Assembly (NCBI GenBank): GCA_012511245.1
Contig: JAAZGM010000134.1
Coordinates: forward strand, 2,305 to 66,304
Length of the DNA stretch: 64,000 nt
Direction of reading: 5' to 3'
Origin: Methanomicrobiales archaeon
Lineage (GTDB): Archaea; Halobacteriota; Methanomicrobia; Methanomicrobiales; Methanoculleaceae
The notes under the pieces were generated by a model. That model was not told where the DNA came from. It worked only from the letters and a program-made list of their open reading frames with translations, and searched no databases. The translations under genes were made by a program, and so were the position numbers. Positions 21,866 through 56,246 of this stretch are shown here, in pieces. Position 1 is the first letter of the stretch. Each line of letters opens with the position of its first letter.

Positions 21866-22107
21866 AAGGGGGAACGAGTTCCCCCTCCCCGTCAGCCCCT
21901 CCCCCTATGGCGATATCTCCACGGTCCACTGCATGGGCGGATGCTGGATAAGATCCATGCACGGCTGCTCGTCGGGTATCGCCATGCCTGCCCCGCCCCG
22001 CAAGAAAAAGGAGGAACGTAATACGCGGGTGGGGTGGGGACTACGGGGGGAGCAGACCCCCACCGGCCCTTTCCCGAATGGCGATACCTGCCACGACTCG
22101 TTGCATG
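21866..22107. repeat. composite GC-rich palindromic repeat element (REP/MITE-like), copy A
   Basis: 11-bp inverted repeats GGTATCGCCAT (21975-21985) / ATGGCGATACC (22078-22088); another TGGCGATA at 21908; several hairpins; similar to copies at 35.9, 48.9 and 56.2 kb. Confidence 0.75.
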
Positions 22108-22239
22108 AAGGTACGCCAGAGAAAATAAGGGTCGCCTCTGGAACCGATCTGATCAGGACGAAAAATAAGATCCGGGCTGGATCTCAATAGACTGGTTTAT
22201 GGTATTTTCATGCTGGAAGCAGACGGGAAAAGAGGAGTC

Positions 22240-24678
22240 TCACTCCCCTTCTTCCCCATCCTCTTCGGCATCCAGGATCGTGAACCCGATGACCCTGTCG
22301 CCGTCATCGAGTCGCATGACCCGGACGCCCCGGGTGCCGCGCTTCTGGATCGATACTTCGGAGACCTTCGTCCGGATGACGATACCGGATTCGCTCATCA
22401 CGATGATCTCATCGTCATCGGAGACCGCCATCGACCCGATGACGTTGCCTGCCCGGACGTCGACGACGATGTTCCTGACACCCATCGTGCCCCTGCCGTG
22501 GCCGCGGAACTCATCAAACTCCGTCCGCTTCCCGTAGCCCTGCTCCGTGATGGTGAGGAGATGGTCGTTCTCGACGACGGATATCGCCTGCAGGGCATCA
22601 CCGTGGCGGAGACGGATCCCCCGCACACCCATAGCGTTCCGGCGGACCGGGCGGACAGCCTCCTCGTGGAACCGGAGACTCTGCCCGAATCTCGTCGTCA
22701 GGATCAGTTCCCGGTCACCGTCGGTCGCCTTCACATCCACCAGTGTATCGCCGTCACGGAGGTTGATAGCGTTGATACCGGTCTGCCGCGGCCGCGAGAA
22801 CTCATCGAGCGCCACCTTCACGACCGTCCCCGCCCTCGTTGCGAAGAAGAGGAAGTGTTCGGAGTCAAACTCCCGCACAGGGATCACCGTGGTCACCCGC
22901 TCCTCACCATCGAGGGGGAGGAGGTTGACGAGAGCCTTGCCCTTCCCGGTCCGCTGCCCCTCAGGGAGATCGTAGACCTTCAGCCAGTAGATCTTTCCCC
23001 GGTCGGTGAAGCAGAGGAGGTAGTCGTGCATATTCGCGACGAAGACGTTCTCGACACCATCATCGTCCTTTGTCGCCATGCCGATGACGCCGCGGCCGCC
23101 GCGCCGCTGGTTCCGGTAGGTGTCGAGATCGATCCTCTTCACGTAGTTGGAGGATGTGAGCGAGACCAGCATCGGTTTGTCCTCGATGAGATCCTCCTTA
23201 TCGAACGCCTCAGCCACCTGCCCGATCCGGGTTCTCCGCTCGTCGCCATAACGTGTGCCGATATCGACAAGTTCTTTCCTGATCTCGGCAAGAATGCTTT
23301 CTTCACTCGCAAGGATCGCAGACAACCGCTCGATCTCCATCGCAAGAACATCGCGCTCGTCGAGGATCTTCTGCTGCTCAAGCGCCGCAAGCCTCCGAAG
23401 CTGCATCTTCAAGATGGCATCCGCCTGCACCTCGTCGAGGGCAAACTTTGCCACCAGGGCATTCAGGGCTTCTTCAGTCGTTCCGGATGCCCGGATCGTC
23501 GCGATGACCGCATCGATGTTGTCGAGCGCGATGAGGAGGCCGCGGAGGATATGCATCCGCTCCTCGGCTTTCGCAAGGTCGAACTCCGTCCTCCGCCTGA
23601 CCACATCCACCCGATGTTTGAGGAACTCATGGATGAGTTCCTTGAGGTTCAGGGTCCGGGGCTGGCGGTCGACGATCGCGAGGTTGATGATGCCAAAGGA
23701 CGACTCGAGCGCCGTGTGCTTGTAGAGGTAGTTCAGGATCACCTGAGGCGCGGTGCCCTTCTTCAGGTCGATCACGATCCGCATACCGTCGCGATCGGAC
23801 TCGTCGCGGATGTCGCCGATCCCCTCGATCCTTTTGTCACGAACGAGGTTTGCGATATGTTCGATCAGACGCGCTTTGTTCACCTGGAATGGGATCTCGG
23901 TGATGATGATCTGCGGAGTCCGCCCTTCCTCCTCGATCTCCGCAACCCCCCTGACCACACACTTCCCGCGACCGGTGAGATAGGCATCACGGACTCCTCC
24001 GGTGCCCATCATGATCCCGCCGGTCGGGAAATCGGGACCGGGCATGATCCGCATCAGTTCCTCAGTGGATGTGCCCGGTTCATCGATGACGCGGCAGGTC
24101 GCCTCACAGACTTCTCTGAGGTTATGAGGCGGCATGTTCGTCGCCATACCAACCGCGATCCCGCTTGACCCGTTGACGAGGAGGTTTGGGATACGGGCGG
24201 GAAGGACGTCGGGTTCCTCGAGTGATTCATCAAAGTTCGGGACGAAATCTACCGTCTTCTTGTCGATATCCGCCAGGAGCTCCTCTGAGATCTTCGTGAG
24301 CCGGGCCTCCGTATACCGCATCGCTGCAGCGGAATCCCCGTCGATAGACCCGAAGTTACCCTGACCGTCCACCAGCGTGTGGCGGTAGGAGAAGGGCTGC
24401 GCCATCTTCACAAGCGTATCGTAGATGGCCGAATCACCGTGCGGGTGATACTTACCCATCACGTCTCCGACAACACGGGCGCTCTTCTTGTAGGGCTTGT
24501 CGCTCGTGTTGCCCATCTCCCACATCGCATAGAGGGTGCGACGATGGACCGGCTTCAAACCGTCCCGCACATCCGGAATAGCCCGGCCGATGATCACGCT
24601 CATCGCGTAGTCGATGTAGCATGATTTCATCTCCTCTTCGATGTTGACCGGAACGATGCTGACGTGTTCAGATGTCAA
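22240..24678 (-). CDS. gyrA: DNA gyrase subunit A
   Basis: [19 protein letters not shown], GyrA-box QRRGGRG, C-terminal pinwheel repeats. Confidence 0.97.
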
Positions 24679-55318: not shown

Positions 55319-55996
55319 CTACATCGCTCCAGTCCCAAACCCGGGAATTGCCACCCTCGCTTCAAGCCTGTGCAGCAGTTTGAGGCCTCCGTAGTTCAGG
55401 ATGATGAATATCCCCGCCGTCGCGAGGTAGATCGGTATCGTGATGTGAGTCTGCGTGACGATCCTCGCGGTGATGGTGAGCAGTTCCACGACTCCGATAG
55501 CGTAACAGACCGCTGAATCGGTCAGGATGTTGGGGTACTCGTTTGACCAGCCGGGAAGCGCTATCCGCATCGCCTGGGGAAGGATGACCGAGTGGATGGC
55601 GGTGAACCGGCTCATTCCAAGCGATCTCGCTGCGATCATCTGTCCTTCACCGACAGACTGGATGGCCCCCCGGAAGATCTGCGACTGGTATGCTGCTCCC
55701 CGGAGACCCAGCACGACCGCCCCGACGACGAACGCTGAGTAGTGGCCGAGCCCGATCGCCGGGAATATGCCGAACCAGAAGAGGAAGAGAAGGACGAGGA
55801 TGGGAAGGCCCCTGAAGAACCAGACGTAGATCCCGACCGCCCACCGGATCGGCCGACCGCCGTAGACCTGGCCGAGCGCCATGGGGAGCCCGAGAAGGAT
55901 CCCGAGGCCGAGTGCGGCAAGGACAAGGCCGAGGGTAGAGGCGATGCCTGAAAGAAGATACGGCAACCAGTCGAGGAGGATCGGCAAAACGTCCAT
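55319..55996 (-). CDS. polar amino-acid ABC transporter permease
   Basis: FRGLP, AYQSQIFRG, ILPQA. Confidence 0.9.
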   Translation of the reverse strand: MDVLPILLDWLPYLLSGIASTLGLVLAALGLGILLGLPMALGQVYGGRPIRWAVGIYVWFFRGLPILVLLFLFWFGIFPAIGLGHYSAFVVGAVVLGLRGAAYQSQIFRGAIQSVGEGQMIAARSLGMSRFTAIHSVILPQAMRIALPGWSNEYPNILTDSAVCYAIGVVELLTITARIVTQTHITIPIYLATAGIFIILNYGGLKLLHRLEARVAIPGFGTGAM

Positions 55997-56196
55997 GTGG
56001 CTATCCCTGAATCACTGTAATCTCTCCGGCCAGAGGAACAGTGCCGGTACTCTATGCATGAATCTGACGGAGAGCAAAATAAACGTTGCTAATCTACGGT
56101 TAACCGGAAGATCACTTGTTGCCAAACCCGCCTCAGGTGAAGAAGGTGGCTGCAGTTATACCAGGATATTTTGAGGGTGCCCCCAAAACCCCTTTG

Positions 56197-56246
56197 CCGG
56201 GGGGAAAGCCGCTCCTTCCCGATCCCTCCCCCGCGTGGCGATATCC
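56197..56246. repeat. TATCGCCA repeat family, copy C
   Basis: CGGGGGGAAAGCCGCTCCTTCCCGATCCCTCCCCCGCGTGGCGATATC matches the unit architecture at 21866 and 22044. Confidence 0.6.

Follow-up and report, generated by a model that had tools for sequence, protein, structure and literature searches.

Bacteria offer well-studied examples of mosaic hairpin repeats served by a dedicated single-copy transposase, and miniature inverted-repeat transposable elements (MITEs) include the Correia elements of Neisseria and the Sulfolobus MITEs. In the literature we found no archaeal case of mosaic hairpin repeats described as such; the text of a broad survey of repetitive extragenic palindromes (REPs) names none (PMC3733652), and full-text searches returned no published account of MITE- or REP-type repeats from Methanoculleus. 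The closest published sequences are the recurrent potential G-quadruplex sequences (rPQS) of Methanomicrobiaceae (Chashchina et al. 2021, Front Microbiol, PMC8044849). These are intergenic, about 50% tail-to-tail, 11% head-to-head and 39% head-to-tail, and show no strand bias; their oligonucleotides interconvert in vitro between G-quadruplex (G4), hairpin and triplex forms, and variants are known from Methanolacinia and Methanofollis. In addition, the satellites Fam_48_45_4 and Fam_102_51_3, with units of 44-51 nt, have been catalogued in M. marisnigri (Subirana and Messeguer 2019, PMC6749651). Here we analyse a window of 64,000 nucleotides (the whole stretch of DNA, G000:C5:2305-66304) from a draft genome, G000, of 365 contigs, 2.22 Mb and 59.8% G+C. 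Three elements of the window, copies A (21866-22110), B (35915-35987) and C (48909-48995), belong with significant scores to a dispersed family of repeats. The family consists of mosaic, short, non-coding, DNA-level repeats and extends throughout Methanoculleus. On balance, we regard its members as probably selfish, non-autonomous DNA, a mosaic repeat resembling REPs and bacterial interspersed mosaic elements (BIMEs) or MITEs.

Two profile hidden Markov models (HMMs) were built by iterated nhmmer on the window's own genome and then run over the window. M1 (83 positions) and M2 (about 70 positions) correspond to types (ii) and (i), respectively, of an initial annotation of this DNA. Both are modules of about 70-85 nt in which a variable head, ending in the invariant TATCGCCA, is followed by a G/C-rich tail. 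Heads measure about 25-35 nt and fall into at least three interchangeable types, each with the terminal TATCGCCA:

Head type a: CACGGCTTTCCACCGG.
Head type b: CATGCAGTGGACCGTGG.
Head type c: a hairpin-rich form, the X-type mini-element.

The M1 tail runs through CCCCCGCCCC, a loop, GGGGCGGGGG, AGGAG, a GAA-loop mini-hairpin and GGGYGGGGTGGGG. Variants of the mini-hairpin are GCGC-GAA-GCGC, GGCC-GRA-GGCC, GCGCC-GGA-GGCGC and, in copy A, CGT-AAT-ACG. About half of the M1 copies in the own genome are followed by CTACA or TTACA, at a position that varies across species (alignment columns 101-107). The M2 tail reads GGGGKGGGG-CTGAC-GGGGAGGGGG, a loop and CCCCCTCCCC; its four G-runs and C-rich arm make it an rPQS.

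The modules are joined in a regular way. Across 118 loci from many Methanoculleus species we found 104 adjacent module pairs, of which 91 join M1 to M2 in opposite orientation, as the BIME-like alternation proposed in the initial annotation predicts. Heads-outward (tail-to-tail) units account for 68 of the 104, with a modal length of 182-190 nt, and heads-inward junctions in longer chains for another 23. The usual unit is therefore an M1 and an M2 tail-to-tail, about 185 nt long and bounded by TATCGCCA...TGGCGATA, whose inverted ends match exactly over only 8-11 bp and lie on heads of differing types. Types a, b and c can each stand at either end of the unit, so heads assort independently of tails. 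Tandem arrays of heads or of whole units are also present, with periods of 51, 98 and 232 nt. In copy-poor genomes, a two-hairpin mini-element of 45-85 nt, X (GCACC-N4-GGTGC ... GTCGC), is nested in tails between CCT and CCCC. X mini-elements also act as an alternative head (type c) and form arrays (L274, at G003:C1, ~955107-955576; L210, L212 and L209); no copy of X was found within the window. The initial annotation had overlooked the independent assortment, the 185-nt tail-to-tail unit and the identity of its G-rich type (i) tail with the rPQS published in 2021.

That annotation had proposed four related elements and a possible degenerate fifth at about 32395-32470. Copies A, B and C were recovered with strong scores, copy D was marginal and the fifth, copy E, did not hold up. 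The features are as follows, the modules of copies A to C first:

21866-21940, minus strand: M2 module of copy A (nhmmer 21869-21937, E 5e-19), with a tail that fits the rPQS definition of PMC8044849.
21958-22045, plus strand: M1 module of copy A (nhmmer 21960-22041, E 6e-13).
22046-22110, minus strand: degenerate M2-like module of copy A (nhmmer 22057-22096, E 1e-4).
35915-35987, plus strand: degenerate M2 module, copy B (nhmmer 35917-35984, E 1e-10).
48909-48995, plus strand: M1 module, copy C (nhmmer 48910-48992, E 1e-19; RNA fold).
21803-21865, plus strand: 3' stub of a deleted M1 module and spacer into copy A, from alignment with the orthologous locus in genomes G023, G010 and G003.
35817-35854, minus strand: marginal M1 remnant beside copy B (nhmmer E 0.004, model positions 25-66).
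48836-48908, plus strand: accessory low-copy module M5, directly 5' of copy C (4 own-genome copies, E 1e-7 to 1e-19).
48993-49095, plus strand: accessory low-copy module M4, directly 3' of copy C (4 own-genome copies, each beside an M1).
56197-56258, minus strand: copy D, marginal, a decayed head with a partial tail (nhmmer 56201-56258, E 0.08 with both models).
32395-32470, no strand assigned: proposed copy E, a non-member without an HMM match.

All motifs quoted in the initial annotation, including the 11-bp inverted repeat of copy A and both instances of CCACG-N6-TGCATG, are present where it had placed them. Copy A is the series M2(-) M1(+) M2(-). Read on the minus strand, its first M2 comprises head b (CATGCAGTGGACCGTGG..TATCGCCA), the rPQS tail, in which CTGAC forms the central loop between G-runs, and the C-rich arm. 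The M1 consists of head a (CACGGCT..GGTATCGCCA), a C-run, AGGAG, the CGT-AAT-ACG mini-hairpin and GGGTGGGGTGGGG-CTAC; a repeat finder independently matched 21991-22044 of this module with 48942-48995 of copy C (80% identity over 54 nt). Together with the M2-like module at 22046-22110, it makes a heads-outward unit closed by the perfect inverted repeat GGTATCGCCAT (21975-21985) / ATGGCGATACC (22078-22088), through which the unit also closes when folded as single-stranded DNA.

Copy A lies behind gyrA (22240-24678, minus strand). Copies B and C are each between convergent genes, with B ending 3 nt short of the stop codon of the convergent gene 35990-36814(-) and C following an FdhB-type gene. 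The M1(-) remnant beside copy B was absent from the earlier list. Copy C is the best copy of the window, with TATCGCCA at 48926, then the GCGC-GAA-GCGC mini-hairpin, and a C-run / G-run stem spanning the tail. The adjoining M5 contains a GATGCG-N6-CGCATC hairpin, and the genes that adjoin the M4 and M5 copies of the genome are not paralogues. Copy D has TGGCGATA at 56236 and sits in a divergent promoter region. Copy E was rejected as a member; it matched neither model, blastn returned only 14-nt chance matches, and a DNA contig of a related strain crosses the interval as ordinary conserved sequence.

To gauge abundance, we searched the own genome by nhmmer and obtained 38 M1 matches (29 nearly full length) and 19 M2 matches, which bears out the annotated picture of a dispersed, modular, non-coding, multi-hairpin family. 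The 368 kb of intergenic DNA contain 67 occurrences of TATCGCCA or its complement, compared to a mean of 8.9 +/- 7.4 (maximum 43) for 200 permuted 8-mers in the same DNA. A 135-nt M1 query found a match in 24/24 genomes of the same genus and in 0/16 genomes of the order's other genera, and the exact rPQS pattern of the M2 tail is present in 20/20 other Methanoculleus genomes. Among genomes that are 95-99% complete, counts of the exact tail motif spanned 1 (G019 and G022) and 4 (G127) at the low end to 61 (G023) and 71 (G079) at the high end. Three other genera have 1-4 copies each, with CTATCGCG or CCTATCGCA directly 5' of the G-runs; the presence there of the TATCGC anchor indicates that it is older than the genus. 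Clusters lie at contig ends in 8/36 cases, as expected of repeats that break short-read assemblies; they thus interrupt metagenome assemblies of Methanoculleus and could serve as strain-typing markers in biogas reactors. A pattern search of IMG/VR gave three matches, all chance matches in coding DNA, blastn against phage and plasmid collections gave no family match, and metagenome loci around relatives of copy C's 164-aa neighbour held no modules and yielded no strain-level site.

A custom codon-usage gene finder called 2191 genes covering 84% of G000. The modules have no coding capacity, and 48/57 M1 and M2 matches fall outside predicted genes. The 28 scorable clusters divide into 15 convergent, 9 tandem and 4 divergent contexts, against a background of 19%, 53% and 27%, an excess between convergent genes with a binomial p of 5e-5. 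Across species, 66 units were 46% convergent, 42% tandem and 12% divergent, which agrees with the split reported in PMC8044849, and the orientation bias was not significant. The idea of a conserved neighbour gene was dropped, the neighbours being only housekeeping genes (DEAD helicase, Cdc48, FdhB, deoxyhypusine synthase and others).

Orthologous sites with and without copies, which the initial annotation had recommended seeking, were found, and they show copies gained, lost or replaced. At the gyrA site, G010 and G003 have a short spacer of about 100 bp without modules, G005 has one pair, and G023 has M1 M2 M1 M2. G000 has three modules and a deletion of about 770 bp relative to its close relative G023; the breakpoint, at about 21799-21803, shows GGTG microhomology, and the lost segment comprised the first M1 together with most of a small gene for a membrane protein. 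At a second, convergent site (G000:C6:10535-10707), the two stop codons abut in G011, G010 has 157 nt with a tail remnant only, G003 has 470 nt of X-type hairpin satellite, and both G023 and G018 have M2 plus M1.

Several further observations concern the gyrA locus. The membrane-protein gene that is cut short in G000 remains full length in G023, G010 and G003. It lies upstream of a small gene at 21479-21690 (minus strand; region 21479-21802), whose product of about 70 aa looks by eye like a putative HTH_XRE-type regulator. A wastewater metagenome DNA contig (run X4) joins 21199 to 22262, so that both copy A and the small HTH-like gene are missing from it. Its source is probably a related species arranged like G019, and in several sister species the upstream open reading frame likewise abuts gyrA. 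By eye, the M1 of copy A (21958-22045) is closer to the first M1 of the G023 cluster L134 (about 85%) than to the position-matched M1 (about 65%), which suggests recombination or gene conversion between neighbouring modules.

Four features favour selfish DNA of a non-autonomous kind: the range of copy number, the orthologous sites that are empty, filled or replaced, the tandem arrays, and the nesting of insertions. Such elements would spread in trans through a protein recognising the invariant head, possibly when the DNA is single-stranded and folded, would multiply locally through tandem duplication and recombination among modules, and may be tolerated mainly in spacers behind genes. Any host role, for example as structure-prone DNA at gene ends, would then be secondary.

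A number of results weigh against this interpretation. Some copies hold the same locus in several species, such as those that follow fdhB and a gene for a DEAD-box helicase. Target-site duplications and exact ends could not be defined from filled and empty sites, as the sites compared are from different species and too diverged, and by eye no recurring duplication is apparent in 66 units. On a tree of 87 M1 copies, genome labels cluster weakly and species are intermingled (51 label changes, compared to 55.9 +/- 1.4 when shuffled), giving little sign of recent genome-specific bursts, on a tree of poor resolution at 83 nt with other-species copies chosen by exact motif. In addition, module cores are conserved between species as strongly as coding DNA, and other genera retain the TATCGC anchor on the 5' side of the G-runs. 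The last two observations and the same-locus copies fit selection on the sequence, whether for a host function or by a conserved reader protein; given the conservation of core and anchor, such a role is a less likely possibility but not a negligible one.

The absence of a recognisable mobilising enzyme belongs with these points, since none emerged from searches for Y1, TnpB, DDE_Tnp_1 and DDE_3 proteins, neighbour genes, phages and plasmids. The window itself contains no transposase, as had been annotated. A link to TnpB was rejected, 16/20 tnpB loci having no module within 2.5 kb, and one to DDE_Tnp_1 or DDE_3 was likewise rejected, as 8/8 loci had neither a module nor TATCGCCA. Among the 20 TnpB, 8 DDE and 6 Y1 loci there was no parent insertion sequence (IS) with matching ends; other IS families and ISfinder were not searched. 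As an observation in its own right, tnpB (PF07282) is present in 1-10 copies in each of five genomes tested (G003, G023, G018, G019 and G022), in none of which the Y1 TnpA (PF01797) was found, and these genes appear to be stand-alone IS1341-type elements.

The same enzyme search bears on the proposal, made in the initial annotation, that the hairpins are single-stranded substrates of a Y1 HUH transposase of the RAYT (REP-associated tyrosine transposase)/IS200 type encoded elsewhere, as in REP-RAYT or REPIN (REP doublets forming hairpins) systems. The alternating, BIME-like orientation accords with it, as do the GAA-loop mini-hairpins, loops of the GCGAAGC type being known to form unusually stable DNA mini-hairpins, and the reverse strand of M1 begins with TGTAG or TGTAA in many own-genome copies, like the GTAG tag of REPs. 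This tag is not conserved across species, however. PF01797 has no match in the own genome, matches only 7/31 genomes of the genus and is missing from the complete genomes G003, G007 and G019, although G003 and G007 are copy-rich; the control genomes, E. coli among them, gave matches, which shows that the search works. The annotation had also suggested looking for Y1 transposases flanked by copies, and the six Y1 loci examined contain no M1 or M2 module. Membership of a REP-RAYT system fails because there is no RAYT, and this reading, already largely refuted, is very improbable.

Host function is a better-supported alternative to selfish DNA, although we consider it clearly the less likely of the two. 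Here, modules prone to form G-quadruplexes, hairpins or triplexes would be kept at gene ends by selection, and could act as termination or roadblock signals, as topological barriers, or as sites for chromatin or replication proteins that read TATCGCCA. Apart from the core and anchor conservation and the loci that retain a copy across species, the structural switching of rPQS oligonucleotides in vitro and their placement, about half tail-to-tail without strand bias, speak for it (PMC8044849), as does the depletion of copies in divergent promoter regions. By contrast, near-complete genomes of the same genus with only 1-4 exact tail-motif matches indicate that the elements are dispensable, and the same spacer may be empty, filled or occupied by an unrelated hairpin satellite in sister species. 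A T5 run separates the element from the gyrA stop codon, and the transcript therefore probably stops short of it; tandem arrays and decayed copies look like junk dynamics.

We also considered whether the elements are a structured non-coding RNA family, as had been suggested in the initial annotation, or cis-acting RNA elements of 3' untranslated regions that stabilise or terminate mRNA. Copies do lie behind genes, and the M1/M2 unit folds as a closed multi-hairpin rod. In 69 M1 copies, 94% of cells pair in two local hairpins, and an alternative long-range stem pairs equally well. Covariation is confined to the 4-bp mini-hairpin, where GC/CG swaps affect two pairs in 18-19 sequences. The claim that this inner hairpin is conserved by structure is right in that pairing is maintained through a two-sided change (GCGC/GCGC in 43 sequences versus GGCC/GGCC in 18, at two pairs), but the change is essentially one swap between two self-complementary 4-mers. 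The longer GCGCC-GGA-GGCGC variant and the CGT-AAT-ACG of copy A favour a true hairpin.

Other evidence counts against an RNA. The RNAalifold covariation term is just -0.55 kcal/mol, and fold z-scores against shuffles (-0.8, -2.8 and -1.2) are barely beyond the expectation from base composition. Copies occur in both orientations relative to the upstream gene, here as in PMC8044849. Flanks differ or fall into a few module classes, with no sign of a shared promoter, although promoters were not scanned for. No Rfam family matched the whole window at gathering score, and in E-value mode 20800-22300 gave only two irrelevant weak matches, both outside copy A. Evidence from sequencing runs came from Logan contigs; those from RNA libraries reach depths of 52 and 17 over position 21920, values that are uninformative on transcription because such contigs pool all copies and may include DNA. 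Copy B had low cover in run contigs and was not counted as evidence. Mixed orientation, weak covariation and folds and the lack of an Rfam match, together with the DNA-oligonucleotide work of PMC8044849, favour a DNA-level element, and an RNA family seems improbable.

What might read the elements? The family is abundant, archaeal and behaves in the genome like bacterial REPs but without a RAYT, and its invariant 8-bp anchor points to a reader protein. More speculatively, the TATCGCCA head may be the recognition site of an archaeal protein, either a non-Y1 recombinase or transposase that moves folded single-strand hairpin/G4 modules or a domesticated DNA-binding factor; we hold this specific proposal to be doubtful. 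If true, the TATCGCCA reader would give archaea an equivalent of the REPIN-RAYT partnership that relies on another enzyme, and the system would be old enough to have TATCGC-anchored relatives in other Methanomicrobiales genera.

Upstream of orc1/cdc6, G000:C93:4282-4803 (L145) contains two origin recognition boxes (ORB; CCCCTTYGTTTCCAGTGGAACTC-like) followed by an AT-rich stretch to the contig end, and is a probable replication origin. Head a (CTTTCCACCGG; TTTCCAGTGGA in few copies) is loosely like the ORB boxes by orc1 (GTTTCCAGTGGAAC). The matching stretch is short, with the C-run on the opposite side of the dyad, and the origin-box idea stays a possible lead. Elsewhere in the window, two adjacent same-strand genes within 51017-52136 have 107 nt in common at 78% identity (51046-51152 and 51584-51690), probably through tandem gene duplication.

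How does the family compare with known systems? The satellites of PMC6749651 have units with a GCACC-N4-GGTGC hairpin ... GTCGC that resemble the X mini-element by eye; they form a companion family of their own that has been catalogued solely as tandem satellites, and TATCGCCA does not occur in the stored part of the archaeal satellite files of that study. From palindrome-associated transposable elements (PATE) derived from IS200/IS605, the family differs in that its units have inverted ends, TnpA occurs in few genomes and most tnpB loci are module-free. It shares with MITEs a non-coding unit of about 185 nt with inverted ends, species-variable copy number, presence or absence at orthologous sites and nested insertions. 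The inverted ends are short, however, and since neither a target-site duplication has been demonstrated nor a parent IS found among the loci examined, the elements are not yet classed as MITEs.

With the REP/BIME and RAYT systems of Enterobacteria and Pseudomonas, including REPINs (PMC2817692, PMC3116915), the family has in common many short extragenic palindromes behind genes, mosaic clusters, alternating orientation and vertical persistence within a lineage. Unlike these, Methanoculleus modules have no accompanying RAYT/Y1 gene, are longer and consist of two parts, a head and a G/C tail; the halves of a unit are two different modules rather than one inverted REP, and the host is an archaeon.

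The closest correspondence is with the rPQS of PMC8044849. The M2 tail has the same four G-runs, separated by loops of 1 nt, of 3-5 nt (CTGAC in Methanoculleus) and of one A, the same C3TC3-type 3' arm and the same intergenic placement, about half tail-to-tail and without strand bias; both the window sequence 21866-21940 (minus strand) and the M2 alignment agree with the published definition. The paper covers only the G-rich core, as a DNA structure motif. Its text, as read here, does not contain the TATCGCCA head, M1, the paired unit, mosaic assortment, tandem arrays or orthologous gain and loss, nor the words 'transpos' and 'mobile'. Our results therefore reframe the published rPQS, in that its G-quadruplex-prone core is one half of a larger modular element that is gained and lost, and arguments for function from recurrence alone are correspondingly weakened.

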